Source: an uncultured Gammaproteobacteria bacterium (lineage in GTDB: Bacteria > Patescibacteriota > Patescibacteriia > UBA2591 > UBA6264). From it: 39,459 bases of DNA. A model generated the notes under the pieces. The model was not told the origin of the DNA, did not search any database, and saw nothing but the letters and a program-made list of their open reading frames with translations. The stretch covers positions 1 to 39,459 of the forward strand of contig CAZXPA010000001.1 of NCBI GenBank assembly GCA_964642485.1, written 5' to 3'. This document shows, piece by piece, positions 18,589 through 35,740 of this stretch. The position numbers and the translations under genes are program-made. Numbering within the stretch: position 1 is the first letter of the stretch; each line of letters starts with the position of its first letter.

Positions 18589-18625
18589 TATAACATTATA
18601 ACATTTTAACAGTTTAACAAAATAA
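18586..18625 (-). repeat. 8-bp-period array (5 units), in phase with the start codon
   Basis: The minus strand reads TTATTTTG TTAAACTG TTAAAATG TTATAATG TTATAATG, and the final ATG is the start codon at 18588. It contains a perfect TGTTATAAT. Confidence 0.85.
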
Positions 18626-18638
18626 GTCATTTAATTGT

Positions 18639-19694
18639 TTATTTGTTAAGTTGACTCTTAATTTTTTGGATTTGTCTAACTGGCGTAGGGTCAACTTTGT
18701 TGAGTATGGCTAAATAAAAACTTATCCAGTCTCCAAGCAGGACCAATGAAATAGTTTGAACAAATTTATGATCACCAAAAATTGGAATTTCTTCCCAGCG
18801 AATATTTTCTTGATCTAACAACTTTTCAAAAGTACTTATAGCTTTTTTGATTTTAGGTTTTTTTTCTAAATCTTCAAAAATTAGAAAAACAATTTCATCT
18901 TTTAAACGCCAGGGCAGACGGCTTTCAATAGAATTGTGGAAAATTTCCGGGAATGTTTCAAAAAAGCAAAAAGTTTTACTATTTTCCGCCATTTGTGTTT
19001 TAAAACGCCGACCAATGCCTGATAAATTTTCAGGGGCAATAATAATTGGCAAGTGATCAAAGATAAAATAAGCCAGATATTTAGCAATGTTCTTTTCTAT
19101 TGGGGTTTCAGGGTAAAAAATTTGATTAAAATTTTTAAGCTGGTCTAGTGAAGGAACGATTTGAAAGTTTTTCAAATTAATCAGGTCAAGTTTTTCTAAG
19201 ATAACTAGAATTGGTATAAAAACATAACCTAGGCTTGCTCGGGCTGGGCCTTGATATTGAAATTTAAAAACAGGTAATTTTTTTTCTTGAGCCAATTTTT
19301 TTAATTTTCCACCCTGAGTAATAATTACAATTTTTGTTTTTTTCTTTATTGCCCCTTGAACACAAGACAGAGTCTCTTGAGTCTCACCTGAATAGCTAAC
19401 TGAAATAACCAGAGTATCTTTATCAACTAAGGACGGCAAGTGCCAGTCGCGAATAATAATAATTGGTTTTTTAAGTTGATCAGTAATTAGGTTCTTAATC
19501 AGTTCGCCGCCGATAGCTGAACCACCCATTCCACTAATAACAATGTTTTTAATATTTTTATAGGCTTGAGGCAGCTTTATTTTCTGGCTTAGATTATAGG
19601 CTTTTAGGCATTGATCAGGTAAATCAGCAATAAAATCAGCCATACCTGATTTATCCAGGTCTTTAATTTTTTTAAGGTCATCAAGAATAGTCAT
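18639..19694 (-). CDS. Bifunctional phosphoglucose/phosphomannose isomerase (SIS-domain)
   Basis: ISGMGGSAIGGE and SYSGETQET motifs. 351 aa, typical of the PGI/PMI family. Confidence 0.75.
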   Translation of the reverse strand: MTILDDLKKIKDLDKSGMADFIADLPDQCLKAYNLSQKIKLPQAYKNIKNIVISGMGGSAIGGELIKNLITDQLKKPIIIIRDWHLPSLVDKDTLVISVSYSGETQETLSCVQGAIKKKTKIVIITQGGKLKKLAQEKKLPVFKFQYQGPARASLGYVFIPILVILEKLDLINLKNFQIVPSLDQLKNFNQIFYPETPIEKNIAKYLAYFIFDHLPIIIAPENLSGIGRRFKTQMAENSKTFCFFETFPEIFHNSIESRLPWRLKDEIVFLIFEDLEKKPKIKKAISTFEKLLDQENIRWEEIPIFGDHKFVQTISLVLLGDWISFYLAILNKVDPTPVRQIQKIKSQLNK

Positions 19695-19774
19695 ATTAAA
19701 TCATTAGAACATTAGAATATTGACGTATGGTAACATTGTAACAGAAATAATGCCTATTGTCTATAATCTAAATT

Positions 19775-19814
19775 ATGTTAGAATGTTAAAATGTTAAGAT
19801 GTTAAAATGATTTT
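19775..19814 (+). repeat. 8-bp-period array (5 units), in phase with the start codon
   Basis: ATGTTAGA ATGTTAAA ATGTTAAG ATGTTAAA ATGATTTT, then the ATG at 19815. ATGs fall at 19775, 19783, 19791, 19799, 19807 and 19815. Confidence 0.9.
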
Positions 19815-20540
19815 ATGAGCGGGCATAGTAAATGGGCCAAGCTAAAACATTTCAAAGGGGCGCTTGACGCTAAAAAAGGCGCTATGTTTACTAAGCTTGG
19901 GCATGCTATTACTATAGCTGCCCGGCAAGGTGGCGGTGACCCAGAATCTAATTTTAAACTGCGCTTAGCTATTGAAAGTGCTAAAAAAGCGAATTTACCC
20001 AAGAATAATATTGAGCGGGCCATTAAAAGGGGGACCGGTGAGTTGGCCGGGGAACAAATTGAAGAGGTTGTTTATGAAGCTTTTGGCCCGGGTAAAACTG
20101 CTTTAGTAATCGAAGCCTTAACTGATAACAAGAATCGAACCGTGGCCAGTTTACGACGGGTTTTTAATAAATATGGAGGGAATTTAGGCGGTCAGAATTC
20201 TGTTTGTTGGATGTTTGAAAAAAAAGGAATTATTAGAATTGCCGATTGTAAATCAAAAGTCCCTAATTTGGAAGAAGTTGAATTAAAGGCAATTGATTTT
20301 GGAGCCGAAGACATTAAAATAGAGGGTGATGAATTAGCTATTTATACTAAGCTTGAAGATTTAGAAAAGGTTAAACAAAAATTAGAAGATGAGGGAGTAA
20401 AGATAGATTATGCTGAAATAGAATGGTTTGCTAAAGATCCAATTGAAGTTGATGAGTCAGTTCAGAAAAAGGTTGATAGTATTTTTGCTGAGCTTGAGGA
20501 AATTTCAGACATAAACGACTACTATTCTAATATTAAATAA
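19815..20540 (+). CDS. YebC/PmpR-family transcriptional regulator
   Basis: MSGHSKWAKLKHFKGALDAKKG is the family-defining N-terminus. 241 aa. Confidence 0.9.
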   Translation: MSGHSKWAKLKHFKGALDAKKGAMFTKLGHAITIAARQGGGDPESNFKLRLAIESAKKANLPKNNIERAIKRGTGELAGEQIEEVVYEAFGPGKTALVIEALTDNKNRTVASLRRVFNKYGGNLGGQNSVCWMFEKKGIIRIADCKSKVPNLEEVELKAIDFGAEDIKIEGDELAIYTKLEDLEKVKQKLEDEGVKIDYAEIEWFAKDPIEVDESVQKKVDSIFAELEEISDINDYYSNIK

Positions 20541-20572
20541 TTGTTAAATTGTTTAATTGTTAAGTTGTTATG
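20541..20572 (+). repeat. 8-bp-period array (4 units)
   Basis: TTGTTAAA TTGTTTAA TTGTTAAG TTGTTATG. The last three nt are the ruvC ATG. TGTTAAATTGTTTAAT is shared exactly with 31835-31866. Confidence 0.85.
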
Positions 20573-22149: not shown

Positions 22150-22204
22150 ACTTTTCGAGTTTCGACTTGTCGAGACGAAGAAAATTTAGGAACAAATCCT
22201 AGAC

Positions 22205-22241
22205 CTCCCTCCTTTTGCGCGCTTGCGCGAAAAGAAGGGGG
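22205..22241. repeat. Dispersed long imperfect hairpin, copy 2
   Basis: CTCCCTCCTTTTGCGCGCTTGCGCGAAAAGAAGGGGG. It matches 10963-10997 outside the loop. Confidence 0.75.
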
Positions 22242-22304
22242 TGCTCAAATTTATGGTAAAAATTTTTGCATTATGAATAACTTAAAATTTTTAATAAATT
22301 TGGC

Positions 22305-23816
22305 ATGAAAAGGCCTTTAAGAGTTGTTCATATTAGCTCTGAAATTTCGCCTTATTCTAAGAGTGGAGGCTTGGCTGATGTGGCTCGATCTCTGCCTCGG
22401 GCCTTACGCCGGTTGGGCCATCAGGTGATAGTTGTCACCCCTTATTATGGTTTTATAAAAAAGAGAGACTGGCCCTTAGAAAATTTGAGCGCTCGATTAA
22501 CCCTGGAATTTGCCGGCCATCAATATAAGTTTGGTTTTAAAAAAGTTATTTGCCCGGATAATTATCCGGTCTTTTTTGTCTGTCAACGAGAATTATTTGG
22601 TTCGCGCCAGAGAGGGGGTTCAGGGATGTATGCTTATCCGGATAATGGTTTAAGGTTTTTATTATTTGATTTAGCCGCTATTGAGCTGATAAAGATTTTA
22701 AAATTTGAGCCTCATGTTATTCATTGTCATGATTGGCATGCTGGCCTGGTTCCTAATTATTTAAAAATAAGGTATAAGAATGATGAGAAATTGAAAAATA
22801 TCGCTACTCTTTTTACAATTCATAATTTACTTTTTCAAGGCCCGGAAGATTGGTGGAGGATTTCACCAGAAAAAACAGATAATGGCAGGGGCTTGCCGAA
22901 AGAAGACTTGGAGAAACTAAAATGGCTTAACTTTACTAAAAGAGCAATTTTCCATGCTGACCTGATTAATACTGTAAGTATGTGTCATGCTCGAGAGATA
23001 ATGACGCCAGAATTTGGTTGTCATTTAGACGATTGTCTCCGGAAACGCAAAAAAGATGTTTACGGAATTGTTAATGGTGTTGATTATGCAATTTTTAACC
23101 CCCAATTTGATTCAGATGTTTATATTAACTATGATGCTGATTCTTTAGAAAAAAAGGTTGAAAATAAATTGATTCTTCAAAAGAAGTTTGGATTAAAAAT
23201 TGATCCAGAGCTTCCTTTAATTGGCTTAGCCAATCGTTTAACCGAGCAAAAGGGATTCAAGTTAATTATCGATCTTTTAGATTATCTTTTGAAATTGGAT
23301 TTACAAATTGCTATTATTGGTAGTGGCGGGGGGATTTATGCTGATGCTCTCCGGGTTACCAGACGAAAACATCCTAAAAAGATATTATTTGTTTCTCCTT
23401 TTAGAGAAGATATTGCCAGGAAAATTTATGCCGCTTCAGATATTTATTTAATGCCTTCCCGTTTTGAGCCTTGCGGGATTTCTCAGTTAATCAGTCTGCG
23501 TTATGGGTCGATTCCAATTGTTCATGCAGTTGGCGGACTCGCGGATACAGTCAGTGATTACAACCCAAAAACTGGAAGAGGAAATGGTTTTGTTTTTACT
23601 TCTTATAATTCAAGAGACCTTTTATTTGCCTTAGCCCGAGCTTTGGAGAATCATCGCCGGCGAGGGGCCTGGCAAACATTGGTTCGTCGAGCTATGAAAG
23701 AGTCTTATTCTTGGACTTTGCCAGCTAAAAAATATGCTGTCCTTTATCGCAAGGCAATAAAGAAACATAGAGACCAATTAAACAATTTAACAATTAAACA
23801 AGCAGATAGAAAATAG
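22305..23816 (+). CDS. glgA: Glycogen/starch synthase (GT5)
   Basis: VVHISSEISPYSKSGGLADV (K-x-GGL motif), HCHDWHAG and PSRFEPCGISQL motifs. Confidence 0.9.
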   Translation: MKRPLRVVHISSEISPYSKSGGLADVARSLPRALRRLGHQVIVVTPYYGFIKKRDWPLENLSARLTLEFAGHQYKFGFKKVICPDNYPVFFVCQRELFGSRQRGGSGMYAYPDNGLRFLLFDLAAIELIKILKFEPHVIHCHDWHAGLVPNYLKIRYKNDEKLKNIATLFTIHNLLFQGPEDWWRISPEKTDNGRGLPKEDLEKLKWLNFTKRAIFHADLINTVSMCHAREIMTPEFGCHLDDCLRKRKKDVYGIVNGVDYAIFNPQFDSDVYINYDADSLEKKVENKLILQKKFGLKIDPELPLIGLANRLTEQKGFKLIIDLLDYLLKLDLQIAIIGSGGGIYADALRVTRRKHPKKILFVSPFREDIARKIYAASDIYLMPSRFEPCGISQLISLRYGSIPIVHAVGGLADTVSDYNPKTGRGNGFVFTSYNSRDLLFALARALENHRRRGAWQTLVRRAMKESYSWTLPAKKYAVLYRKAIKKHRDQLNNLTIKQADRK

Positions 23817-23821
23817 AAAAA

Positions 23822-23885
23822 TTAACTAATTTCCAATTTCCATTTTCTATACCAATTTCTAATTTCTAATAACCAATTTCTAATT
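23822..23885 (+). repeat. Dispersed 64-nt AT-rich intergenic element, copy 1
   Basis: TTAACTAATTTCCAATTTCCATTTTCTATACCAATTTCTAATTTCTAATAACCAATTTCTAATT. It is identical to 35741-35804 except at 2 positions and abuts the ATG at 23886. Confidence 0.9.
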
Positions 23886-25115: not shown

Positions 25116-25184
25116 CTAAAGACCATAGAAGCTACTGTCTCGAATTTCACGGCCGTGAAAAAGTGAATAGTAATTTTTCCTCTC

Positions 25185-25224
25185 TTGTTAAATTGTTATA
25201 TTGTTATATTGTTAGAATGTTAAA
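25185..25224 (+). repeat. 8-bp-period array (5 units), in phase with the start codon
   Basis: TTGTTAAA TTGTTATA TTGTTATA TTGTTAGA ATGTTAAA, then the ATG at 25225. Confidence 0.9.
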
Positions 25225-26628
25225 ATGATTATCTATGACCTAATCCATGGCTATCAGCCATTTGATCCAGGCGATCCAGTTCCTGAGTGGATAAAAGGGA
25301 ATTTAAAACAAATTTTTTTACCTACTTCCTTGGCAATGAAAAAAGGTTTAATTCCTCGAGGGGCTCAGCTTCAAGGCTGGACTATTGATGTCTGGTTAGC
25401 AGCAAAAAAACCAATAAGGGATTTGGCTAAAAAAACTTTTAATAATTTAAAAATTGCCAATCAAAAAGGAAATATAGAAATTGGCATTAGTGCTTATAGC
25501 CATCCGATTTTACCAATGCTAAGCAGTGATTTAATTCAAGCCCAGATTCTCTTAGACAAAGAGGTGGTTGAACAGTATCTTGGTAAAGCAACCTGGTTTT
25601 GGCCGCCAGAGGGAGCAATTGATAGACGAGTTTTAAAAATAATTCACCAGACCTTTCCTAATTTAATTTTACTAATTCCCGACAAGGCAATTGGCAGGTA
25701 TAATTTTAGTGGACCAATAAAAATTAAGTTTCCTGACTCGCCCTGCCTGCCTGGCGGCCGGCAGGCGGCCGGCAGGAAAAAGGATTTTCAAAAAGCCATT
25801 GTTTTTAATACTTTGTTGAAGGATTTATTTATGAATGCCGAGGATTACCGGAAAAAGCCAAAATATATTAAAAGACCAAAGCACTTGCCTGATAAATTAG
25901 TCTGGTCACAGGTTCGTCGGATGGTTCATTCTCCTAAAGTATTTTTACAAGTTTTAGAATATTTGCGCTCCGCGCAAAATTCTCTTACCAATTACGAATC
26001 TAAACGAATTACGAATAAATTTAAAAGTGATTGCTTTGTTTTAATGAGGGACTGGGAGAATGCTGGTTCTAAAAGAGGGCTGAGAAAAATAAAGGGAGCT
26101 GTCCCTGAACAGAGATTGCCCCCAAAAGAGATTGGTAATTTTTTAAAATTTAGAAATCAAACCGGCCCGTCTGGCTTTGCCAGGCCAAGCGGGCGGATAA
26201 ATTTTTGCCTGCCCAGTCAATTTAATTGGCAAAGAGCAGAAATTATCCCAATTTCTAAGATTATCCCCTGTTCTTGGGATATGGAATCAACCCCCAAAGA
26301 TCCTTTTCCCTGGTGGCAGCCAAATAAACATGGGGCAGTTTGGCGGAAATGCAAACCTTTTCGGAGAAAGAGAATGATTGAATGGCAAGAGTTAATTAAA
26401 GAATTTAATCAGATTTTTCAACAAAGGATTAAACAGCAAGGAGGGCTAAAAAAAGCTTTGAAAAATAAAGAGTTTAAAGATTTGTTAAAAAGGACTCTGC
26501 CAGCTCTTCATTCTTGTATTGGTTGGCATTATTTTGCTAAACGAGCCTGGAAACCAGATTATCAATATTCTCAGCAGGCCTTGAAGAATATAGTTTTACC
26601 AGGTTTAAAAAGGTTAAAAAATTTATGA
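25225..26628 (+). CDS. Divergent GH57-like protein, paralog 2, carrying GC-rich and low-complexity inserts
   Basis: LIHGYQPF, SAYSHPILPML, FWPPEGAID and LMRDWENAG align loosely with GH57 regions of the flanking paralogs. The middle of the protein is basic and low-complexity. Its stop overlaps the next start (ATGA). Confidence 0.5.
   Translation: MIIYDLIHGYQPFDPGDPVPEWIKGNLKQIFLPTSLAMKKGLIPRGAQLQGWTIDVWLAAKKPIRDLAKKTFNNLKIANQKGNIEIGISAYSHPILPMLSSDLIQAQILLDKEVVEQYLGKATWFWPPEGAIDRRVLKIIHQTFPNLILLIPDKAIGRYNFSGPIKIKFPDSPCLPGGRQAAGRKKDFQKAIVFNTLLKDLFMNAEDYRKKPKYIKRPKHLPDKLVWSQVRRMVHSPKVFLQVLEYLRSAQNSLTNYESKRITNKFKSDCFVLMRDWENAGSKRGLRKIKGAVPEQRLPPKEIGNFLKFRNQTGPSGFARPSGRINFCLPSQFNWQRAEIIPISKIIPCSWDMESTPKDPFPWWQPNKHGAVWRKCKPFRRKRMIEWQELIKEFNQIFQQRIKQQGGLKKALKNKEFKDLLKRTLPALHSCIGWHYFAKRAWKPDYQYSQQALKNIVLPGLKRLKNL
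25741..25776. repeat. In-frame GC-rich palindromic block
   Basis: CCCTGCCTGCCTGGCGGCCGGCAGGCGGCCGGCAGG. It contains an 11-nt tandem CGGCCGGCAGG x2 (25755-25776), and CCTGCC is complementary to GGCAGG. It encodes PCLPGGRQAAGR. Confidence 0.8.
26162..26196. repeat. In-frame GC-rich nested hairpin
   Basis: In CCGGCCCGTCTGGCTTTGCCAGGCCAAGCGGGCGG, GCCCG pairs with CGGGC and CTGGC with GCCAG. It encodes TGPSGFARPSGR. Confidence 0.7.
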
Positions 26629-28601
26629 AATGGGCTAATTTTTTACATTTTTATCAACCATATAATCAGCAGCCTGATATTTTAGAAAGAGTTGTTAATG
26701 AAAGCTATCGCAAAGTTATTGCTGGATTGGCCTCCAACCCAGAGACAAGAATTACCATTAATATTAATGCTGGTTTGACTGAGCTTTTAGTAAAAAATGG
26801 TTATGCTGATTTAGTTGAGCAAATTAAAACTTTTGCTCAAGGGGGCCAGATTGAATTTGTTGGTGGAGTTAAATATCATCCTTTTTTGCCTCTTTTACCT
26901 AAAGATGAGATCAAGAGGCAAATTAGACTTAATGATCAAACAAATAAAAAATATTTTGGTCAAGCCTGGAAGCCGCGAGGGTTTTATTCTCCAGAACTAG
27001 CCTATAGTAAGAAAGTCGCCCGGGCGGCCAGAGAAGCGGGCTTTAAATGGATTTTAGCCGAGGAATTAGCTTGTGCTAAAAAGGCGGGTTTTAAAAAGAT
27101 ATATAATATTAAAGGGCTAGATGATTTTAAAATCATTTTTCGTGATAAAAAAATTAGCGTTTTAATTCTCTCCGCAATTGTTCGTAATTTAAAATCTTTA
27201 ATTCAGGAAGTTGGTCAAGAAGAATTTAAAAAGAATCGTTATCTTTTAACCGTAATGGATGCGGAGACCTTTGGCCATCATCGGCCAGGGTTAGAGAATT
27301 TTCTTTTCCAAATATATCAGGACAGAAAAATACCCAAGGTTTTTATTTCTGACCTAGTTAAAGAGTTTGGTGTTAATGAAGAAATTGAGCCTCGAGATAG
27401 TACTTGGTCTTCTGAAGAACAGGATTTTTGGTTGGAAAAGGAAAAAGAACATAGTTTTACTCTTTGGAATCATCCAGAAAATCCCATTCATCGGATTCAA
27501 TGGGAATTCACTTATTTTGTTATTGATTTGGTTAAAAGAATTAACACTCAAGTTCCTTGGTATAAAGAGATTCGTCAAAAGTTAGATCGTGCTTTGCAGT
27601 CAGACCAATATTGGTGGGCTTCAGCCAAGCCGTGGTGGTCTTTAGAAATGATTGAGCAAGGAGCTTTTATTCTAAAACAAGTGGTTTTTTCTATTCCGGA
27701 TGTTAGTCAAAGGAATAAGAATAAGGCCGAAGAATATTACCGCCAGATAATTGACCTGGCTTTTCAATGGCAGCGGAGTGGAAAAATTCGTCAGGCTTAT
27801 CGTCAGGCCATGGATACAGTCAAGTTAAGACCTTATAAAAAAAGAGTTTTGGTTGGCCAGTTTAATGCCATGGTTTTAGAATTTGAAGATGAGATGAATA
27901 AAGCAATTAAAGACCAAGAATTTGAAAAAGCCATTAAATGGCGTGATGCTATTTATAAGTTAAAAAGCGGGATGGATATTTATGATGTTTTACATGTAGT
28001 TGATGATTTGCGCCAAGTGAGACATTTACCTTCACTTAAAGATTATTGGGAGCATGCACCTGAAGAATTTTCCAGCTTTGCTAAAAAATCTTTTACTAGT
28101 TTTCAAAAGAAAAAATTTGTGCAAAAACAACCTAGCCATTTTTTAAATGAAATAAAAGCAGCTTTGTTAAAAAGGAAAATGGGTCATCCTTTGGGATTTT
28201 TTAAAGATGAATATAATAATGTTTATTTCTGCGAAGTACCCAGTCAACATATTGAACATTGGCCAGGAGAAAGAGGATGGGATGCAATGAGTATAATCAA
28301 ATTTTCTCGTTCAGGAACATATCATCAACCTCATCAATGTTTTTATCAATTTAAAAAGGGAAAACTAAAAATAATAGTTAAACCCCAAAGTTTGGTTAAT
28401 CAAATTTTAAAGTTTCTTAAACAGCATGACATTGGTCAAGGCAGGTCATTAAAATTAGCTATTTTAGCAGAAAGCCAGAGATGGTCACCAATCTTTTTTA
28501 AAAAAGATAAGAAAGGAGAGTTGGTCGCCACTATTCCGTATAGAGTTTCTGCCCAAGGGCAGGGTTTTAAATTCAAGATATCAGGCTTTAGCCTGAAATA
28601 A
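26625..28601 (+). CDS. GH57-family enzyme, paralog 3, fused to a UVR-like motif and an uncharacterised C-terminal domain
   Basis: FLHFYQPYN, GQIEFVGGVKYHPFLPLLP, FYSPELAY, VMDAETFGHH and SDQYWWASAKPWW. EMNKAIKDQEFEKAIKWRDAIYKL (about 27870-27968) matches the UvrB/UvrC UVR motif pattern. About 200 further residues have no recognised family. Confidence 0.7.
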   Translation: MKWANFLHFYQPYNQQPDILERVVNESYRKVIAGLASNPETRITININAGLTELLVKNGYADLVEQIKTFAQGGQIEFVGGVKYHPFLPLLPKDEIKRQIRLNDQTNKKYFGQAWKPRGFYSPELAYSKKVARAAREAGFKWILAEELACAKKAGFKKIYNIKGLDDFKIIFRDKKISVLILSAIVRNLKSLIQEVGQEEFKKNRYLLTVMDAETFGHHRPGLENFLFQIYQDRKIPKVFISDLVKEFGVNEEIEPRDSTWSSEEQDFWLEKEKEHSFTLWNHPENPIHRIQWEFTYFVIDLVKRINTQVPWYKEIRQKLDRALQSDQYWWASAKPWWSLEMIEQGAFILKQVVFSIPDVSQRNKNKAEEYYRQIIDLAFQWQRSGKIRQAYRQAMDTVKLRPYKKRVLVGQFNAMVLEFEDEMNKAIKDQEFEKAIKWRDAIYKLKSGMDIYDVLHVVDDLRQVRHLPSLKDYWEHAPEEFSSFAKKSFTSFQKKKFVQKQPSHFLNEIKAALLKRKMGHPLGFFKDEYNNVYFCEVPSQHIEHWPGERGWDAMSIIKFSRSGTYHQPHQCFYQFKKGKLKIIVKPQSLVNQILKFLKQHDIGQGRSLKLAILAESQRWSPIFFKKDKKGELVATIPYRVSAQGQGFKFKISGFSLK

Positions 28602-28676
28602 CCTCACTAAACTACTAATCTATATAAATACGAATATTAGTACTATTAGTAGGGATTCGTAATTTCGTAAGGTCCC

Positions 28677-29756
28677 ATGATATTTATTAAAGTTAAAACA
28701 AGGATAGACCCAAAAAAAACCCTTGATAAAGAGTACATGTTTTCATTTTTTAAAAAAAGAGGACAGAAATTTTTATCTATAAACGAGAAATTAATTGATT
28801 TGAAAATTGATTTGATTAGAAATTTCCAAGGTAAATTCAGGAATATGGGTTTGAGATATGAATTAATAATAACCCCTGCCAATTCCCCCTTAAAAAGGGG
28901 GAGAAAAAGAAGGGGCGTGAGGAAAAAGATAGTTCGAGCCAGAATTCACAAATATCAAGATATCCCCAGAAGAGAATGGCGAGTTCTTAATTATTTTAAA
29001 AAAGTCGGTCTAGAAAAAATTACTCCTCGACCCTTAGATTATTTTAAGCCTTTAAACATACTTTTTTATTTAGAAACCCCTGGATACTCTTTTGAAGGAA
29101 TACTTGCCCAAAGAAAGCCAAACATACTTTTAAGATTTGTTCCTTTAATTGCTAAATGGTTAAATCGGATTCATGGTTTAAATAAAAGACTAGCATTTTT
29201 ACCTGTTAAAACCATTCAAGAGGAAAAACGCGAGCGTCAACATTGGTTTTTTTTGGTAAGAAAATGTATGCCGAGTTTTTATCCTTTATTCAGCCAACTT
29301 TTAAAAGAGCTTTGGGGTTTAAAACAAAAAAACAAAGGCCTGTTTTTAAAGCCTTCTCAATATAGGTTGGTTCATGGAGATTTTCATTGGGGGAACATTA
29401 TTAGGAACAAAAATAATTTCCGGATAATAGATTTTGGCACAGCTTTTTTAGGAGATCCTTTGGAAGATATTGGTGGTTTTTTAGCTCAAAATGATTCAAT
29501 GTTCCGCTATTATGCTCCTAGATTTATAAAAAAGAGCCGGGAAATTAGAGAGGTTTTTTTAAAGAATTATTTTAAAAAGCCTTTTTTAAAGAGCCAGAAA
29601 TGCCGCTTGCTTTATTTTGAAATTCAGAAAATATTAGAGATGGCCGCAATTTTGGCCCTTATTGAATCAAATGAAAAAAACAAAACAAGAGGCGTGGCAA
29701 GATTATTAAGAGAGGCAGAAAAAAAAATTAAAATTGTTAAAATGTTAAAATGTTAA
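28677..29756 (+). CDS. APH-fold (aminoglycoside/choline/maltokinase-like) phosphotransferase
   Basis: LVHGDFHWGNII (HGDxxxxN catalytic loop) and IIDFGTAFLGDPLEDIG (DFG plus DPxxD). The substrate cannot be determined from sequence. Confidence 0.7.
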   Translation: MIFIKVKTRIDPKKTLDKEYMFSFFKKRGQKFLSINEKLIDLKIDLIRNFQGKFRNMGLRYELIITPANSPLKRGRKRRGVRKKIVRARIHKYQDIPRREWRVLNYFKKVGLEKITPRPLDYFKPLNILFYLETPGYSFEGILAQRKPNILLRFVPLIAKWLNRIHGLNKRLAFLPVKTIQEEKRERQHWFFLVRKCMPSFYPLFSQLLKELWGLKQKNKGLFLKPSQYRLVHGDFHWGNIIRNKNNFRIIDFGTAFLGDPLEDIGGFLAQNDSMFRYYAPRFIKKSREIREVFLKNYFKKPFLKSQKCRLLYFEIQKILEMAAILALIESNEKNKTRGVARLLREAEKKIKIVKMLKC

Positions 29757-29773
29757 ATTGTTAAATTGTCCTA
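29734..29773 (+). repeat. 8-bp-period array spanning a stop codon and the next start
   Basis: TTGTTAAA ATGTTAAA ATGTTAAA TTGTTAAA TTGTCCTA. It encodes the kinase C-terminus KIVKMLKC* and ends at the PHP ATG (29773). Confidence 0.85.
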
Positions 29774-30687
29774 TGATTGATTTACATATGCACTCCTATT
29801 TTTCTGATGGGATTTATTCACCAGAAGATTTAATTAAAAAAGCAAAAAAAGCTGGTTTTAATTTTATTTCCTTAACTGATCATAATGGAATTGATGGGGT
29901 AAAAGAATTTTTAAATAAAGGAGAACGAGCTGGATTAAAAGTTATATCTGGAGTAGAAATTTATACTCATTATCCCGCTCGCCATCGCTACGCCCAGGCG
30001 TCAGCGGGCGAGCAAAAACAAAACCTTCATCTTTTAGGTTACGGATTTGATTTAGAAAATAAAGAATTAAATTCAGCCTTAAAAGAACTTCAAGCTCAAC
30101 GTATTCCTCGAATAAAGCAAGCAATTAAACTTTTACAAGCAGATAATTGGCAAATAACCGAAAAAGAGATTTTCAGTTTTCCTTCTGTTTATCTTGGTTT
30201 ATTTCAATTAGCAAGTGTTTTACAAAAACACCCTCAAAACTGGGAGCGAATAAAAAAAGATTTTAATTGGTTTAAGGGTAAAATTATTCCAATTACTGAG
30301 ATTATTGTTAAGTATTTTATAAAAGATAGTCACTCCATTTATGGCGGCAAATCAATCTGCCCAGAAACAAGAATTCTAGTTGACCAGGCAATTAAATTAA
30401 TTAAACAAGCTGGAGGTAAAACAGTTTTGGCTCACCCGGGCGAGCATCTTTCTTGGAAACATGATGTTTTAATTGCTGAATTAAAAAAAATAGGATTGGA
30501 TGGGCTCGAAGCAGTTTCTGCTCATCATTCTTGGCAGGAAATAGAGCATTGGCAGAAACTTGCCAGGGAATTAGATCTAATAATTACACCTGGTTCTGAT
30601 TTTCATGGAGATTTACCCCACGAATGGGGTTTTCCAATTCAAAGTCAATGGGAATATTTTACCCCTAACATTGTTGTTGAAATTTGA
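29773..30687 (+). CDS. PHP-domain metal-dependent phosphoesterase (TrpH/YciV-like)
   Basis: MIDLHMHSYFSDG, LTDHNGIDG, GVEIYT, VLAHPG and GSDFHG motifs. ATG at 29773 is preferred over the track TTG at 29758. Confidence 0.8.
   Translation: MIDLHMHSYFSDGIYSPEDLIKKAKKAGFNFISLTDHNGIDGVKEFLNKGERAGLKVISGVEIYTHYPARHRYAQASAGEQKQNLHLLGYGFDLENKELNSALKELQAQRIPRIKQAIKLLQADNWQITEKEIFSFPSVYLGLFQLASVLQKHPQNWERIKKDFNWFKGKIIPITEIIVKYFIKDSHSIYGGKSICPETRILVDQAIKLIKQAGGKTVLAHPGEHLSWKHDVLIAELKKIGLDGLEAVSAHHSWQEIEHWQKLARELDLIITPGSDFHGDLPHEWGFPIQSQWEYFTPNIVVEI
29974..30013. repeat. In-frame GC-rich nested hairpin inside the PHP gene
   Basis: In CCCGCTCGCCATCGCTACGCCCAGGCGTCAGCGGGCGAGC, GCTCGCC pairs with GGCGAGC, CGCT with AGCG, and ACGCC with GGCGT. 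It encodes PARHRYAQASAGE. Confidence 0.8.
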
Positions 30688-30771: not shown

Positions 30772-31770
30772 TTATTCAGAAGTTATTGGTTTTAGGCTGC
30801 GAAAGATTCCGCCAATGGCTGCGGCAAAGATATGCCCGCTGGGGCTGATTGCTAAACCAAATACTGTTGGCTTGTCACTTTCTTCCAGAGGGGGTATCCC
30901 GCCATTAATTTCTTCCCAGGTATTTCCATTATCTATTGAATGAAAAGCTCCGAGATAGGCTCCAACAAAGACATCACTGCTTGAGCTGGTGATAATGGAT
31001 TTAACACTCTCATTTAAGTCAGTTTCTACCCAGGTGTTTCCATTATCTGTTGAACGAAATAGTCCCCAATCATTTCCAGCAAAAATATGCCCCAGTGAGT
31101 TTGTGGTAAGAGCCGTAGCAGACTTCTCCAGACCAGTATTGGTTTCCGTCCAATTGTCGCCATTGTCCATGGAACGGAAAAAATCGCCATCAGAGCCACT
31201 GGCAAAGATGTGTCCATCGGGGTTAATAGCAATAGAATAGATTACAGTGTTTGTCAAGCCATTATTTATTTCCGTCCAAGTTTCGCTATTATCTGTTGAG
31301 CGATATAACATACCTTTTCCTGCTCTTGCGACAAAGACATTATCAGCCGAATTAATAGCAATGGAGTTAACGCCAGCATATATATCAGGCCTAATTTCTG
31401 TCCAAGTGCCCCCATTATCTATTGAACGAAATAGGTCCCAGTGGGTTCCAGCGAAAACATACCCCAATGAGTTAATGGCAAGACATTTAGCGAATACGTC
31501 TGTTAAACCAACCTCTTCCCATGTTTCGCCATTGTCCATGGAACGAAGAACACCTTTATTCCCGCTTCCAGCAAAAATATGCCCTTGGGAGTTGGTAGCA
31601 AGAGATAATGTGAGGACATCGATTTCATAGACTTGCTCCCAGAAGTCTTCTGGCTCACCATTTCCATTATCTCCATCAGAATCAGTTGGCGATTTACTAC
31701 AACCTGAAATGACAAGGACAGCCGCAATCATCAAAACCAAGAATAGCAACGGATATTTTTTGCTTTTCAT
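30772..31770 (-). CDS. BNR/Asp-box repeat beta-propeller lipoprotein (Ycf48/sortilin-like repeats)
   Basis: Lipobox VISGC. About 8 iterations of F/LRSxDNGxTWxE(I/V) (SxDxGxTW Asp-box) occur at about 40-aa spacing. The gene is visibly more G+C-rich than its neighbours. Confidence 0.75.
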   Translation of the reverse strand: MKSKKYPLLFLVLMIAAVLVISGCSKSPTDSDGDNGNGEPEDFWEQVYEIDVLTLSLATNSQGHIFAGSGNKGVLRSMDNGETWEEVGLTDVFAKCLAINSLGYVFAGTHWDLFRSIDNGGTWTEIRPDIYAGVNSIAINSADNVFVARAGKGMLYRSTDNSETWTEINNGLTNTVIYSIAINPDGHIFASGSDGDFFRSMDNGDNWTETNTGLEKSATALTTNSLGHIFAGNDWGLFRSTDNGNTWVETDLNESVKSIITSSSSDVFVGAYLGAFHSIDNGNTWEEINGGIPPLEESDKPTVFGLAISPSGHIFAAAIGGIFRSLKPITSE

Positions 31771-31786: not shown

Positions 31787-31834
31787 TTTTTGTTTGTTTT
31801 TTCTTCTTTTTTAAGATTTAAAGAGCTCCTTTAT

Positions 31835-31866
31835 TGTTAAATTGTTTAATTGTTAAATTGTTTAAT
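31835..31866 (+). repeat. 8-bp-period array (TGTTAAAT TGTTTAAT x2)
   Basis: The array lies on the plus strand between two minus-strand genes and overlaps the LysM-CHAP stop at 31862-31864. Its orientation is opposite to both flanking genes. Confidence 0.85.
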
Positions 31867-33070
31867 TGCTTTTAGGGTAAATATAGCCAAGGATTTTCCA
31901 GCCGTTCTGCCATTGTTTAGTAATATTTTTAAGAGAACGTTCTGAATATTGTCGACGTTTTAGTCCATTCATTTCAGAAATAGTTACTGTGCTCTCATCA
32001 AAACTTTCGACATAAGCCACGTGGCCATAATAACCACAGATCCAACTAGTACAGGTTAGGGTCATAATTGCTCCCTGACGAGGAGAGGATCCTGTTTCAT
32101 AGCCGTCTTTTTGGGCTTTTCTGTACCAATATTTAGCATGACTCCAGGAGGGGACACATTGACCCTGTTCAGTTGCCCATTTAAAAGCAGCCCAATCAGT
32201 ACATTGTCTAGAAACAAATCTATGACATTTAGTGTTGCTCCGCCAGTCCCAATAGTTTGAATAATTTTCTTGGACCAACTGAGGGGCAACTGACTGGTAT
32301 TTAGGTGCAGGCGGAGGTGGTGGGGTTCCTTCAGGGATAATAAGAATCTCGCCTGGTTTAAGAATTGACTCCTCTGTTAAATTATTGAATTCAGCGATTT
32401 GTTTGGTTGAAGCTTTGTATTTTTCTGCTAAATAAGAAAGGTTTTCACCCGTTTTTACTTTATGGGTTATTCCATTTATCGGCAGGATTTTTAATTCATC
32501 CCCTGGTCGGATAACAGACCAATAACCAAGATTATTTTCCCAGAGAACCGTACTCCATTTAAGGCCAAAGTTTTCAGCAATTGTACTGATTGTATTACCA
32601 GGTTGAACTATGTATTTTTCTATCTCCGTTCGGGTTATGCTTAAGAAATCAATCTCATTGACTTCTGTTTCTGGAGCCACTAAAATACTGCCCCCGAGAA
32701 TCAGAGCGATTTCTGAGTCCTCGCTTATGTCTATTATATCATCCTCACGCCAGGCGGCGATTTGAAAGTCTTGTTTTTGTTGGTCTTCACTTTCGTCAGA
32801 AATAGTCAGTAAGCCAGTTTCAATAATTATCTCTTGTTTTTGGAGAATTAATTTAGCCAGAAAACTTTCATTAGTTATTGCTGTTATTTCAAAATAAGAG
32901 AAAATAGTGAAAAGAACAATAATTACAATCAAAGGGGCTTGTTTAAAAGAGAAAAGTCGTCTTTGACATTTAAAATAAAAGCGGAAGATATAAATGAATC
33001 TTAAAATAATCTTTCGTCCTAGGCCTGCAGGCATTAATCGACTAAAATTTTTTGGCAAACTAATTTGCAT
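31862..33070 (-). CDS. LysM-CHAP peptidoglycan hydrolase, membrane-anchored
   Basis: Two LysM motifs (YIVQPGNTISTIAENFG and HKVKTGENLSYLAEKY), a PPPPPAP linker, and a CHAP domain (QCTDWAAFKW ... GHVAYVES). The ATG at 33070 is preferred over the track TTG at 33076. Confidence 0.8.
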   Translation of the reverse strand: MQISLPKNFSRLMPAGLGRKIILRFIYIFRFYFKCQRRLFSFKQAPLIVIIVLFTIFSYFEITAITNESFLAKLILQKQEIIIETGLLTISDESEDQQKQDFQIAAWREDDIIDISEDSEIALILGGSILVAPETEVNEIDFLSITRTEIEKYIVQPGNTISTIAENFGLKWSTVLWENNLGYWSVIRPGDELKILPINGITHKVKTGENLSYLAEKYKASTKQIAEFNNLTEESILKPGEILIIPEGTPPPPPAPKYQSVAPQLVQENYSNYWDWRSNTKCHRFVSRQCTDWAAFKWATEQGQCVPSWSHAKYWYRKAQKDGYETGSSPRQGAIMTLTCTSWICGYYGHVAYVESFDESTVTISEMNGLKRRQYSERSLKNITKQWQNGWKILGYIYPKSN

Positions 33071-33166
33071 AAACAAAAATTTATGCTATGCTTAGTATGC
33101 GAATAATTTATTCGTAGCATTCGCATATTATTCGTAGATTAGCATTATTATTACAATTAGTCAAGT

Positions 33167-35737
33167 ATGGGTTATCAACAGGGGCAAAAAGGCCATAATT
33201 ATCAAAAAATTAACCCCGCACCAGGGCAGAGCTCGATGCGGGGCAAGAAAAAAGCGGCAAGTGATTTTAATAAGATAGAAAGGAAGTGGCAACGTGTCTG
33301 GAAGAAGTTAAACCTTCATCAGGCTAAAGATTTTGATAAAAAACCAAAGCAGTACATTTTAATTGAGTTTCCTTATCTTTCTGGACAAGGACTTCATGTT
33401 GGTCATGTTCGAAGTTATAGCGCCTTAGACGCTTTAGCCAGGAAAAAGAGAATGGAAGGTTATAATGTCCTTTATCCCATTGGTTGGGATGCTTTTGGTT
33501 TGCCAACAGAGAACTATGCGATTAAAACCGGTCTTCACCCAAAAGAAATTATCAGACAAAATATTAAACTTTTCAAGCGTCAATTAAAAAGTTTAGGCCT
33601 TTCTTTTGATTGGTCAAGAGAGATTAATACTTCTGACCCTAAATATTACAAATGGACGCAATGGATTTTTTTAAAACTTTTTGAAAAGGGACTAGCCTAC
33701 CAAGCGGAAATTCCGATTAATTGGTGTCCAAAATGTAAAATCGGCCTGGCTAATGAAGAGGTAGTTGGCGGTAGATGTGAGCGTTGTGGAATTGAAGCAG
33801 AGAGACGGGAGCAAAAACAATGGATGCTGAAAATTACTGCTTATGCTGATAGAATGCTTCAAGATTTAGAAAAGGTAGATTATTTAGAAAAAATAAAAGC
33901 TCAGCAGATTAATTGGATTGGCCGAAGTCAGGGAACAATTGTAAAATTTAAGTTGGCAATCAACAATCCCTATGGGCCGTTGGCCCCGGGCCAGAGGCAA
34001 CAATCAGCAATCAATGATATCGAAGTATTTACTACTCGAATAGATACACTTTTTGGGGTAACGGCAATGGTTTTAGCCCCAGAGCACAGAATAATTTCAG
34101 ATTTAAGATTGCAGATTGAAAATTGGAAAGAAGTTAAAGAATATATTAAAGCCTCAAAGAAAAAAAGCGAGTTAGAAAGGACAGATCTTGCGAAAGAAAA
34201 GACAGGCGTCCCCTTGAAGGGGGTATTCGCTATTAATCCCGCGAACCAGGAAAAAGTTCCCATTTGGATTGGTGATTATGTGATTGCTACTTATGGCGGT
34301 GGAGCAGTAATGGTTGTCCCGGCTCACGACAAACGGGATTATATCCTGGCTAAAAAATATGGGCTGAAGATTAAGCAAGTTATTAAATCAGCAATCAGCA
34401 ATCAAGCTTTTGTTGACTATGGGGTTTTAGTAAATTCTGGAGAATTTAATGGATTAAGTTCTGAGCAGGCAATTAAAAAAATAACTCAGTGGTTAAAAAA
34501 GAAAAAGCAAGGAGATTTTTCAATTCATTACAAGCTTCGCGATTGGGTTTTTTCCCGTCAGCATTATTGGGGAGAACCAATACCAATTATTCATTGTCAA
34601 AAATGTGGTCCAGTTCCAGAAAAGGATTTGCCAGTTGAGCTTCCTTACGTCAAAAGTTATAAGCCAACAGAAACCGGCCAATCGCCTTTAGCAGCGATTA
34701 AGGATTGGGTTAATGTTAAATGTCCAAAATGTGGTGGTCCAGGAAAAAGAGAAACAGATACTATGCCGAATTGGGCTGGCTCAAATTGGTATTTTTTACG
34801 TTATCTTGACTCCAACAATGATCAGGTCTTAGCTGATTTTAAAAAATTAAAATATTGGTTGCCCGTTGATCTATATAATGGAGGGATGGAACATACCACC
34901 TTACATCTTTTTTATTCTCGTTTTTGGCACAAATTTTTATTTGATATCAAAGTAGTTCCAACTCCAGAACCGTATGCTAAGCGCCGGTCTCATGGTATAG
35001 TTTTAGCTGAAGACGGGAGAAAAATGAGTAAAAGTTTTAATAACGTTATTAATCCTGATGAAATAATTAAATCTTTTAGCGCTGATACTCTTCGTCTTTA
35101 TGAAATGTTTATGGGGCCATTTGATCAGGCAATTGCTTGGGACACAAAGACCATTGAAGGAGTATCCAGGTTTTTAACGAAAGTTAAGAATTTAGTATTG
35201 AAAAATAAGAATAAAAAGAAGAAAACAGCAAAAACTCAGAAATTAGAACAAATAGAACATCAAACAATTGGAAAAGTCAGCCAGGACTTAGAAAACATGA
35301 AATTTAATACAGCAATTGCTGCTTTAATGAAGTATACGAATGCGTTGACATTGGAACATGAGAACATTAGAACATTGGAACATATTAAAACTTTATTGTT
35401 GTTGTTGGCGCCGTTTGCGCCACACTTGGCTGAAGAGCTTTGGCATCAAATCCAGCCGGAATTGTCAGAAAAGCAAAGTATTTTTCAGGAGAAATGGCCA
35501 AAATTTGATCCAAAATTAGCCAAGGAAAAACAAATTGAATTAGTGATTCAGATTAATGGCCGGGTTCGGGGTAGAGTTTTAGCTCCAGCTGATATTTCTC
35601 AGGCCGAAGCAGAAGAATTAGCTTTAAAACAAAAGAACATTCAGCGTCATTTGACTGGGGAAAAGGTAAGAAAGATTATTTTCATTCCCGGGAAACTCAT
35701 TAACCTAGTAATTGAGCAAGAGGAAAATAGAAAATAA
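33167..35737 (+). CDS. leuS: Leucyl-tRNA synthetase
   Basis: PYLSGQGLHVGHVRSY (HIGH), FTTRIDTLFG, KMSKS and the CP1 editing region. An alternative start at 33236 (MRGKKK) would remove a non-conserved Q/G-rich N-terminus. Confidence 0.92.
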   Translation: MGYQQGQKGHNYQKINPAPGQSSMRGKKKAASDFNKIERKWQRVWKKLNLHQAKDFDKKPKQYILIEFPYLSGQGLHVGHVRSYSALDALARKKRMEGYNVLYPIGWDAFGLPTENYAIKTGLHPKEIIRQNIKLFKRQLKSLGLSFDWSREINTSDPKYYKWTQWIFLKLFEKGLAYQAEIPINWCPKCKIGLANEEVVGGRCERCGIEAERREQKQWMLKITAYADRMLQDLEKVDYLEKIKAQQINWIGRSQGTIVKFKLAINNPYGPLAPGQRQQSAINDIEVFTTRIDTLFGVTAMVLAPEHRIISDLRLQIENWKEVKEYIKASKKKSELERTDLAKEKTGVPLKGVFAINPANQEKVPIWIGDYVIATYGGGAVMVVPAHDKRDYILAKKYGLKIKQVIKSAISNQAFVDYGVLVNSGEFNGLSSEQAIKKITQWLKKKKQGDFSIHYKLRDWVFSRQHYWGEPIPIIHCQKCGPVPEKDLPVELPYVKSYKPTETGQSPLAAIKDWVNVKCPKCGGPGKRETDTMPNWAGSNWYFLRYLDSNNDQVLADFKKLKYWLPVDLYNGGMEHTTLHLFYSRFWHKFLFDIKVVPTPEPYAKRRSHGIVLAEDGRKMSKSFNNVINPDEIIKSFSADTLRLYEMFMGPFDQAIAWDTKTIEGVSRFLTKVKNLVLKNKNKKKKTAKTQKLEQIEHQTIGKVSQDLENMKFNTAIAALMKYTNALTLEHENIRTLEHIKTLLLLLAPFAPHLAEELWHQIQPELSEKQSIFQEKWPKFDPKLAKEKQIELVIQINGRVRGRVLAPADISQAEAEELALKQKNIQRHLTGEKVRKIIFIPGKLINLVIEQEENRK
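33974..33998. repeat. In-frame GC-rich palindromic block flanked by CAATCA-type direct repeats
   Basis: GGGCCGTTGGCCCCGGGCCAGAGGC contains GGGCC/GGCCC and GGCCC/GGGCC pairings. The flanks are GGCAATCAACAATCCC (33955-33970) and GGCAACAATCAGCAATCAATG (33996-34016). Confidence 0.7.
34386..34407 (+). repeat. 7-bp tandem repeat inside leuS
   Basis: AATCAGC AATCAGC AATCAAGC. Three 7-nt units total 21 nt and preserve the frame. It encodes KSAISNQA. Confidence 0.8.
35344..35383 (-). repeat. 8-bp-period array (5 units) inside leuS, inverted orientation
   Basis: The plus strand reads GTTGACAT TGGAACAT GAGAACAT TAGAACAT TGGAACAT, the reverse complement of ATGTTCCA-type units. It encodes LTLEHENIRTLEH. 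Confidence 0.85.
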
Positions 35738-35740
35738 AAA

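Follow-up and report, generated by a model that had tools for sequence, protein, structure and literature searches.

Short GC-rich hairpin blocks inserted in frame in protein-coding genes of a Patescibacteria contig

Short GC-rich blocks, most of them able to fold into hairpins, are inserted in frame in the AT-rich protein-coding genes of a Patescibacteria contig (CAZXPA010000001.1, positions 1 to 39,459; this whole stretch is referred to as the window), and they differ between close relatives. We propose, with a probability of roughly 0.6, that these blocks are hairpin-forming DNA of 18-54 nt that is either selfish or neutral, comparable in a bacterium to the GC clusters of yeast mitochondria and, in miniature, to Rickettsia palindromic elements (RPEs). 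The window has a G+C content of 35.5% and a gene content typical of Patescibacteria (Candidate Phyla Radiation, CPR), including three GH57-family proteins, an APH-type kinase, a PHP-domain protein, LeuRS, RsmA/KsgA and TyrRS, as well as a class A PBP and T4SS-pilin-like proteins. The sequence compared consisted of the 39-kb window and approximately 297 kb of related loci (hereafter approximately 300 kb), none of them a complete genome. The nearest relative among these loci (L001) is a contig of a metagenome-assembled genome named 'Patescibacteria group bacterium' (GCA_016783845.1), which is collinear with the window at 92-98% identity across 15.4-34.8 kb and comes from a genome approximately 95% identical. 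L007, L010, L014, L016 and several short contigs are also syntenic but more distant, with protein identities of 55-85%.

A preliminary description of the window, made from its letters alone, had listed such blocks in several genes and suggested that they might be lineage-specific palindromic insertions tolerated by coding sequences. A sliding scan recovered all of the listed blocks at, or within a few bases of, where they had been placed, including the 11-nt tandem repeat in the first of them (GGCGGCCGGCA twice in 25732-25776). In-frame insertion was established by ortholog alignments for the blocks at 25732-25776, 26161-26196, 28881-28922, 29974-30012 and 33968-33997, by comparison of LeuRS N-termini for that at 33214-33244, and by alignment with Bacillus subtilis KsgA for both blocks in rsmA, so that the suggestion held for every testable block. 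Six host genes with in-frame inserts relative to their orthologs lie within approximately 11 kb, and in the syntenic locus L014 the APH, PHP, leuS and rsmA genes are shorter than in the window. The inserts span 18-54 nt, and no coding block contains a stop codon or departs from a length divisible by 3. The expected bias in length was also found in the comparison with L001, in which the coding indels, without exception, have lengths divisible by 3, unlike the intergenic ones. Removal of the blocks by translational bypass or in an intron-like manner appears unlikely, because every coding block is a stop-free multiple of 3 nt, unlike the intergenic hairpin indels.

The GH57-like protein is 467 aa long versus 413-430 aa in most orthologs, and its surplus maps to discrete gaps at the blocks (Table 1). 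Block 1 lies between codons F169 and K185 and forms a CCTGCC...GGCAGG hairpin, lengthened by flanking TTT/AAA, with the 11-nt tandem repeat inside; it is missing in 14 of the 21 orthologs covering the site, and the same junction holds other hairpins in L001, L005, L004/L006, L020 and L021. The composite segment further downstream, whose hairpin has a perfect stem of 7 bp, is an insertion relative to most orthologs, and its site holds different hairpins in other lineages. The next segment, a degenerate copy of a doublet of GGGGACTGTCCCC, adds 8-9 aa relative to most orthologs, with better copies at the same site in L017 and L021. Block 2 folds into a nested hairpin with an outer CCG(G)CCCG/CGGGCGG and an inner CTGGC/GCCAG stem. 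Its site is filled only in the window, L001 and L003, and in L003 the outer stem (CCGCCCG/CGGGCGG) is kept and the inner stem is different.

This GH57-like protein, which carries three of the blocks, was the only host protein modelled (AlphaFold; mean pLDDT 68.5, pTM 0.75). The low-confidence segments of the model, residues 173-184, 253-267, 276-305 and 313-323, are the positions of the inserts, with pLDDT below 50 at 173-184 (block 1), 253-267 (the 25962-26028 insert) and 313-323 (block 2), and block 1 is placed between the strands 163-168 and 188-194. As predicted by the model, the inserts of this single protein sit in low-confidence loops, in agreement with the loop location anticipated in the preliminary description.

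The remaining blocks are distributed over the APH, PHP, leuS and rsmA genes. The kinase block, which contains a perfect 8-bp stem at 28884-28902 (TCCCCCTT-AAA-AAGGGGGA), adds 14 aa and, among 15 orthologs, is present only in the window and L001. The PHP block is a near-perfect long hairpin, for which none of 200 shuffles was as good; it is absent in 8 of 12 orthologs, and its junction holds a 54-nt three-way element in L021 and another hairpin in L009. At the 5' end of leuS, the hairpin lies in approximately 19 aa that are extra relative to orthologs, and the protein there reads MGYQQGQKGHNYQKINPAPGQSSMRGKKKAAS… in the window and L001 versus MNYQQPPQSKNQG… and MSYQHPKNEFNYG… in L014 and L007. 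In the alignment of RsmA to B. subtilis KsgA (6ifs), a 10-residue gap faces LERTEGESDT at 36462-36475, and the loop that carries the doublet (core at 36592-36621) is only approximately 6 aa longer than in 6ifs.

Table 1. Hairpin blocks and Y1-associated features of the window (folding: interval folded, minimum free energy (MFE) and z score).
Feature	Coordinates	Strand	Description	Folding
Block 1	25732-25776	+	45-nt in-frame insertion, 82% G+C, peptide PDSPCLPGGRQAAGR, in GH57-like/polysaccharide-deacetylase-like gene	25726-25782; MFE -30 kcal/mol; z -2.4
Composite insertion	25962-26028	+	In frame in GH57-like gene; hairpin TTTGCGC-TCC-GCGCAAA, then TACGAAT-repeat stretch (…SAQNSLTNYESKRITNKFK…)	25962-25978; z -4.5
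Degenerate GGGGACTGTCCCC-doublet copy	26089-26131	+	Peptide GAVPEQRLPP, in GH57-like gene	26089-26131; z -2.1
Block 2	26161-26196	+	36-nt in-frame insertion, 75% G+C (26162-26196: 77%), TGPSGFARPSGR	26155-26202; z -2.6
APH-family kinase block	28881-28922	+	42-nt in-frame insertion NSPLKRGRKRRGVR	28875-28928; z -1.5
PHP-domain gene block	29974-30012	+	39-nt in-frame insertion, 77% G+C (29974-30013: 78%), PARHRYAQASAGE, 13 aa	29968-30018; MFE -25.7 kcal/mol; z -5.2
leuS N-terminal hairpin	33214-33244	+	CCCCGCA...TGCGGGG, 77% G+C	33208-33250; z -3.8
leuS 30-mer	33968-33997	+	CCCTATGGGCCGTTGGCCCCGGGCCAGAGG, in frame, 77% G+C, 10 aa PYGPLAPGQR, begins at codon boundary	33962-34003; z -1.0
rsmA/ksgA palindrome	36462-36475	+	14-nt CCGTTCTGGAACGG within an insertion of approximately 10 aa	36456-36481; z -0.1
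rsmA doublet	36587-36629	+	GGGGACTGTCCCC-GAAT-GGGGACTGTCCCC, peptide MGTVPEWGLSP	36587-36629; MFE -26.9 kcal/mol; z -5.5
Peptides spanning blocks			PCLPGGRQAAGR, GTVPEWGLSPK	
Palindrome copy 1	954-977	.	Perfect 24-nt ATGTTCAACCCCGGGGTTGAACAT, upstream of Y1 gene	z -3.1
Y1 (HUH) transposase-like gene, RAYT/IS200 type	985-1716	+	243 aa; candidate mobilising enzyme	
Palindrome copy 2	1743-1766	.	Identical ATGTTCAACCCCGGGGTTGAACAT, downstream of Y1 gene, after GAACATG repeats	

GC-rich and strongly folding segments are in excess of chance. There are 11 segments of 30 nt with at least 22 G+C in the window versus 2.35 ± 1.09 (maximum 5) in 200 shuffles of codons within genes; 48-nt segments at or below -20 kcal/mol form 9 clusters versus 2.4 ± 0.8 after shuffling, and at -18 kcal/mol the counts are 15 versus 5.2 ± 1.4. 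Perfect GC-rich stems number 3 versus 0.6 expected, although counting perfect stems is too strict a measure for these imperfect hairpins. When each block was compared with its own dinucleotide shuffles, hairpin potential beyond composition was borne out strongly for four blocks (29968-30018, 36587-36629, 33208-33250 and 25962-25978) and moderately for three (25726-25782, 26155-26202 and 26089-26131); it is weak for the kinase block despite its perfect stem, and absent for the blocks at 33968-33997 and 36462-36475. Across genomes, most hairpins in inserts have z scores of -3 to -8 versus mononucleotide shuffles. Another GC-rich stretch of the window, 22390-22420, was rejected as an insertion; it is a conserved motif with no indel among orthologs.

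Comparison of closely related genomes revealed gain or loss of blocks. In the nucleotide alignment of the window and L001, from which the indels were listed, the leuS 30-mer, which is embedded in a CAATCAA-type heptamer array, is exactly missing in L001; it is likewise exactly missing in L007 and L014, which most simply suggests a recent gain in the lineage of the window. Presence/absence polymorphism, which the preliminary description had proposed to look for, is thus documented for this one block between genomes approximately 95% identical. Conversely, hairpin indels of 38 and 36 nt were found in the intergenic DNA of L001, and its leuS carries a 48-nt GAACATNA-array insertion at window position 34390. 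Block 1 and its counterpart in L001 differ at approximately eight positions and by a 3-nt indel within identical flanks, and block 1 contains the 11-nt duplication; therefore, blocks are remodelled in place by small duplications.

Certain junctions have different occupants from genome to genome. At the KIKF|xxGxQ junction of the GH57-like gene, hairpins of 18-51 nt are present in seven genomes, five of which (the window, L001, L005, L004 and L006) have CCTGCC…GGCAGG termini with differing interiors; the hairpins of L020 and L021 are unrelated in sequence. Similarly, at the APH site (alignment column 245), L017 and L005 have a 54-nt element, and L021 and L009 have an AAATCAA heptamer array. Genomes with filled and with empty sites interleave in a neighbour-joining tree computed from the columns outside the inserts: an insert occupies site 1 in no fewer than five separate clades, and site 2 is filled in the window/L001 and L003 and empty in their sisters. 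This interleaving requires repeated gain, repeated precise loss, or recombination. The load also varies, with six hairpins at or below -22 kcal/mol per approximately 21 kb of syntenic DNA in the window, four in L001, two in L010 and none in L007, L014 and L016 (13 kb in the case of L016).

Recombination is suggested by a patch at 26960-27090 that is only approximately 72% identical to L001 (13583-13713) in a gene 92% identical overall; the window protein there resembles L004 and L017, not L001, pointing to local mosaicism between the window and L001. The patch includes a cluster of AT-to-GC changes that makes GCCCGGGCGGCCAGAGAAGCGGGC without changing the length. This stretch, 27011-27041, was rejected as an insertion, since it is a substitution cluster of equal length with no indel, and although its ends are complementary (GCCCG…CGGGC), it folds no better than shuffles (z +0.6). 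The 7-mer AGCGGGC occurs seven times in the window versus 1.6 expected, three of them in the 3' arms of blocks.

An alternative is that nothing moves between sites at all: replication slippage, together with template switching at quasi-palindromes, would add low-complexity DNA to indel-tolerant loops and would build and perfect the hairpins locally, in the way that heptamer and octamer arrays grow. In favour of such growth, internal sub-repeats are seen in the 11-nt duplication of block 1, the (CCTG)n/(CAGG)n arms, GGGCC/GGCCC/GGGCC in leuS and the two copies of TCCGCCTCTGG in L020. In addition, non-hairpin arrays occupy the same sites (AAATCAA at the APH site in L021/L009, TACGAAT, and GAACATNA in leuS), most blocks are unique, and the substitutions at 27011-27041 made a complementary-ended GC stretch without a change in length, albeit one with z +0.6. 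However, the leuS insertion of 30 nt and 77% G+C has no local template in its AT-rich flanks, the composition of the blocks is far from that of the local sequence, and two kinds of element described below recur at unrelated places, namely a doublet at three sites and an element with 24-nt identity and an identical 50-nt architecture across different genes and an intergenic array. We consider growth in place alone rather unlikely.

Several repeat arrays accompany the blocks and are recorded here in their own right. TACGAAT/TTCGTA stretches behave like the GC blocks but form no hairpins: one lies at 25990-26028 and at the same site in L005, and a 69-nt in-frame TACGAAT-repeat insertion in a GH57 gene is present in L001 (9035-9103, at window position 24341) and in the distant L005 and absent in the window. 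TACGAAT-type repeats also occur in intergenic indels (L001 5693-5746, inserted at window position 21061; window 28656-28676 and 33111-33133). Heptamer arrays of (G/A)CAATCA and AAATCAA (window 33950-34015 and 34390-34406, and the APH genes of L021 and L009) are read in frame as Q/N/S/K/I-rich loops and have insertion sites in common with hairpin blocks.

That the blocks share no common sequence, as had been claimed, is true of most of them, which are unique in approximately 300 kb, but it does not hold for at least three dispersed families, whose members occupy 2-4 sites across genomes, either non-homologous or intergenic. The first is the GGGGACTGTCCCC doublet, which is found in rsmA of the window, at the middle site of the GH57-like gene in the window, L001, L017 and L021, and at a third site in L017, that is, at three non-homologous sites and in three different reading frames; its copies at 36587-36629 and 26089-26131 are 79% identical. 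The second is a three-way element of 50-54 nt, with an outer stem of approximately 11 bp and two 5-bp hairpins, which L017 and L005 carry in their APH genes, L021 carries in its PHP gene and L037 carries as three tandem intergenic copies. Different genes and an intergenic array thereby share 24 identical nucleotides in a row and the same architecture over 50 nt. In its six copies, 96.8% of the cells pair, and 9 of the 21 pairs are compensatory, which was matched by none of 500 shuffles. A covariance model of this element recovered only the six training copies over 297 kb, and the blocks of the window were rejected as members, the best covariance score being 15.5 bits at block 2. The third family is the CCTGCC/GGCAGG hairpin, of which an intergenic copy lies between the GH15 and glycogen synthase genes of L007. 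Exact-pattern scans for two families in viral contigs gave no match.

Other hairpins were noted in the course of these comparisons. The L037 array, which was reached via one of two matches in a protein search with block peptides, follows an Avd-like/23S_rRNA_IVP four-helix-bundle gene (L037 917-1261 and 1517-1760) and consists of three 54-nt three-way copies and three 27-nt repeats, earlier called as a spurious 126-aa open reading frame (ORF). Two copies (76% identical) of an intergenic hairpin element of approximately 49 nt, …CCTCCTTTTGCGC(AAA/GCTT)GCGCGAAAAGAAGGGGG…, lie at 10953-11023 and 22197-22267 of the window, with a compensatory change in the inner stem and MFE of -18 and -23 kcal/mol; at the equivalent intergenic position, L007 has the CCTGCC/GGCAGG hairpin. 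In L035, a distant Patescibacteria contig of 41% G+C, strong hairpins at 581-628, 3677-3724, 8497-8544, 12285-12332 and 12569-12616 have as hosts a UvrD/AddB-like gene, ftsZ, an aminotransferase gene and a tRNA-methyltransferase (PF03054) gene; several of them have a GAA loop closed by C-G (…CCGAAGG…, …GCGAAGG…), a motif that is also found in blocks of L003, L004 and L017.

The maintenance of structure under changing sequence could mean that the blocks are functional nucleic-acid structures, selected in mRNA or DNA as exonuclease barriers, RNase sites, translational pause sites or internal attenuators. Besides the compensatory pairs of the three-way element and the altered inner stem of block 2 in L003, the sense orientation of the three-way family at four of four independent sites, the G·U-compatible sense-strand changes in its L021 copy, and the differing sequences of intergenic hairpins at equivalent positions in different genomes are consistent with such a role. 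Covariation is equally expected, however, if the structure serves the propagation of the element itself, and the insertions are patchy even between sister lineages, with most orthologs lacking them. In addition, their positions match protein loops and not any consistent place in operons, several blocks fold no better than shuffles, and an Rfam 15 scan of the whole window at E <= 1 gave only two chance-level matches (E 0.66 and 0.84), neither of them at a block. Structured mRNA elements had been offered as an alternative in the preliminary description; an essential element of that kind is disfavoured by this patchiness among close relatives and the lack of an Rfam match, and we regard functional structures in general as highly unlikely.

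The dispersed families also bear on whether the Gly/Pro/Ala/Arg/Ser peptides themselves are selected as adaptive loops, DNA palindromy being incidental. The inserts are kept between the window and L001, and some are present in more distant genomes (block 2 in L003), as selection on the peptides would predict. Nevertheless, the peptides that different lineages encode at a given site are unrelated, the model has low confidence at the inserts, and the palindromy of several blocks is well beyond chance. Because the reading frame of one DNA family changes from site to site and intergenic copies exist, this explanation is already largely refuted, and we assign it only a very slight chance.

A candidate mobilising enzyme is encoded at the start of the window. 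The ORF at 985-1716 has an HUH-like motif (NHYHL) and the motif RYKS…RYINVINPL, and it matches the Pfam family Y1_Tnp (PF01797) with an E value of 0.0037 and 17.8 bits, below the cut-off of 23; NCBIfam and PDB searches gave no match. Its homologs number over 200, of which several are named from Patescibacteria, some are labelled RayT by JGI, and many carry PF01797 or that name. The perfect palindrome ATGTTCAACCCCGGGGTTGAACAT that flanks the gene is present in exactly two copies in the window versus 0 expected. Y1 homologs are flanked on both sides by a hairpin in all three loci concerned (the window, L033 and L035), the sequences being TTTAACACCCGAGGTTAAA in L033 (157-198 and 953-971) and GTTTAAGATCGGGACTTAAAC in L035 (9961-9981 and 10746-10766), which differ between genomes but keep TT(C/T)AAC…GTT(G/A)AA. 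The genomic neighbours of the Y1 gene differ between genomes, suggesting that the Y1 unit itself may move. We conclude that the Y1 gene and its palindromes are a real unit of the type of IS200 or of REP-associated tyrosine transposases (RAYTs; REP, repetitive extragenic palindrome), whereas a connection with the blocks can only be hypothesized.

On that hypothesis, which the preliminary description had raised, the blocks would be REP-type cargo of this Y1/HUH enzyme, which would cut and rejoin folded single-stranded hairpins. The HUH and Tyr motifs, the weak Y1_Tnp match, the family of more than 200 proteins with its Patescibacteria members and RayT labels, and the hairpins on both sides of the gene in three of three loci, co-varying in sequence with the genome, all fit this picture, and Y1 enzymes are expected to insert without target-site duplication, as is the case for the blocks. 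The link is nevertheless unproven: unlike the blocks, ATGTTCAACCCCGGGGTTGAACAT has no further copy in the 39-kb window or the approximately 297 kb of loci, and it has no sequence in common with them. Moreover, the blocks are very heterogeneous, whereas one RAYT recognises one REP type, and no close Y1 ortholog was found for the approximately 95% identical L001-type genome (next best 65% identity), yet that genome shares blocks. The arrangement fits a simple IS200-like unit equally, and we consider a REP-type origin of the blocks quite unlikely. The most far-reaching reading would be that Patescibacteria host a so far undescribed kind of ultra-short mobile element of 18-54 nt, defined by structure (hairpin or three-way junction) and not by sequence, which would home or be converted into particular codon junctions in housekeeping genes, be translated as loops and perhaps be moved by the 243-aa RAYT-like HUH enzyme, found across the phylum, on folded single-stranded DNA, a 'coding REP' system remodelling protein surfaces in ultra-small genomes; we put this forward as a speculation that is probably wrong in its full form.

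Arrays of 8-nt period are a further feature of the window. Units of (A/T)ATGTTAA/ATGTTC(C/T)A occur at 19765-19812, 20531-20570, 25183-25238, 29724-29771, 31832-31871, 36146-36177 and 36787-36826, and reverse-complement arrays (GAACATNA on the other strand) at 18585-18631, 19693-19739, 35340-35402 and 36719-36773. They lie directly upstream of many start codons, are in frame inside leuS (…EHENIRTLEH…) and make up the C-terminal extension of rsmA. The array unit (GAACATNA) resembles the arm ATGTTCAA of the Y1-flanking palindrome, and GAACATG repeats at 1716-1748 precede the downstream copy of that palindrome. An intergenic repeat of 74 nt with AATTTC(C/T)A units has two copies 95% identical, one downstream of the glycogen synthase gene (23812-23885) and the other downstream of leuS (35731-35804). 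In addition, L001 has a 1.85-kb insertion with an AAA_14/DUF4143 ATPase gene (11412-13261, at window position 26639) that separates the GH57-like gene from the GH57-UVR gene, which overlap in the window; four T4SS-pilin-like paralogs with repeated segments in common are arranged in tandem at 9684-12166, and a BNR/sortilin-type repeat protein with internal repeats of 117-126 nt is encoded at 30772-31770.

For the blocks as selfish or neutral hairpin DNA, we propose that spread and turnover would take place at the DNA level, via folded single-strand hairpin intermediates and/or allelic gene conversion between co-occurring lineages. Selection would act as a filter only, in that a copy inside a gene may survive if it is a multiple of 3 nt, is free of stop codons and falls in a solvent-exposed loop, and such a copy would yield a short disordered Gly/Pro/Ala/Arg/Ser loop in the protein. 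At 35% genomic G+C, a stable hairpin would by its nature be GC-rich, and the lower stop-codon content of GC-rich sequence may add slight help (an estimated 2.6-fold or so). The RAYT-like Y1 enzyme would be an obvious but hypothetical candidate to act on the hairpins. Both this means of spread and the neutrality of the blocks are what we infer.

Several observations weigh against this proposal. Any transposition mechanism would be hypothetical, and neither a target-site duplication nor a conserved target motif was found at the blocks; flanks are not duplicated at GH57-like sites 1 and 2 or at the PHP site, and both CAACAAT flanks of the leuS block are also present in the empty L001 allele. A donor copy of the recent leuS insertion was not found in approximately 300 kb, in which most blocks are unique and shared 12-mers lie mostly only at the orthologous site. 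The leuS and rsmA segments at 33962-34003 (z -1.0) and 36456-36481 (z -0.1) fold no better than their dinucleotide shuffles, and the likeness among CCTGCC/GGCAGG hairpins could be low complexity, (CCTG)n/(CAGG)n, instead of descent. When concatenated block peptides were searched against 5.8 billion protein clusters, only two proteins matched, which indicates that the tested families are probably not high-copy in the searched frame. Finally, the patchiness may reflect a single old insertion that was later lost precisely many times, or recombination, and not repeated insertion.

If the proposal is correct, the tiny, gene-dense genomes of CPR bacteria tolerate the turnover of hairpin DNA even in essential genes (leuS, rsmA and genes of glycogen-metabolism enzymes), and selfish DNA in coding sequences would extend beyond Rickettsia and organelles at a much smaller element size. 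The blocks would then provide a natural map of indel-tolerant loops and explain the heterogeneity of length and G+C content among CPR orthologs. They can also mislead gene callers, alignment trimming, composition-based binning and phylogenies, and the palindrome-flanked RAYT-like gene raises the question of the substrate of this HUH family in Patescibacteria.

No description of such blocks in CPR bacteria was found in the literature searched, and comparison with known systems revealed partial likenesses. The small dispersed repeats (SDRs) of cyanobacteria are reportedly very small mobile hairpin modules that insert precisely into other repeats, including heptamer arrays, and are said to be mostly non-coding, with recognisable conserved sequences and many copies (Elhai and colleagues, 2008). 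The location of the leuS block within a CAATCAA heptamer array, and the common sites of hairpins and heptamer arrays, resemble that behaviour. An identification as miniature inverted-repeat transposable elements was rejected, since the palindrome makes up the entire block, target-site duplication is absent and the window holds no related insertion sequence. With REPs and REP doublets (REPINs) and their RAYTs (PMC3733652, PMC3116915), the blocks share imperfect GC-rich palindromes of 20-40 nt and the presence in the window of a RAYT-like gene with flanking palindromes. REPs, however, are extragenic, high-copy and uniform, with a GTAG or CGTC head, whereas the blocks are intragenic and heterogeneous, have no common head motif and are unlike the palindrome on either side of the Y1 gene. 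Inverted repeats that lie within coding sequence and are translated are also described in mitochondrial genes of Nematomorpha and placozoans (PMC6649704, PMC7813641); these are organellar, and the nematomorph repeats reach 284 bp and have both arms encoding conserved protein, unlike the small loop insertions of the window.

The likeness to RPEs, which the preliminary description had emphasised, stands with respect to in-frame insertion into unrelated genes and fails with respect to size and peptide. RPEs are in-frame insertions of approximately 150 bp in many genes (PMC10969869). Like them, the blocks are palindromic, selfish in the proposed reading, compatible with protein folding and placed in frame in unrelated housekeeping genes of a reduced bacterial genome. 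RPEs, however, comprise approximately ten families with dozens of copies per genome and a conserved peptide, whereas the blocks are 18-54 nt long, GC-rich and mostly unique in approximately 300 kb, they encode different peptides from copy to copy, and the members of one family use three reading frames.

In behaviour, the blocks come closest, by analogy and not by homology, to the GC clusters of yeast mitochondria, which are polymorphic in-frame insertions in var1, evolve fast, with merging and shuffling of clusters, and are present in intergenic regions as well (PMC8811140). The blocks differ from these clusters in being bacterial and not organellar, in affecting many housekeeping genes within 20 kb, and in having neither AG/TAG-type terminal repeats nor target-site duplication. 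Nevertheless, both are short GC-rich palindromes in a compact AT-rich genome that insert in frame and polymorphically in coding genes, change quickly in sequence with merger and shuffling, have termini common to different clusters, and are found between genes as well as within them.

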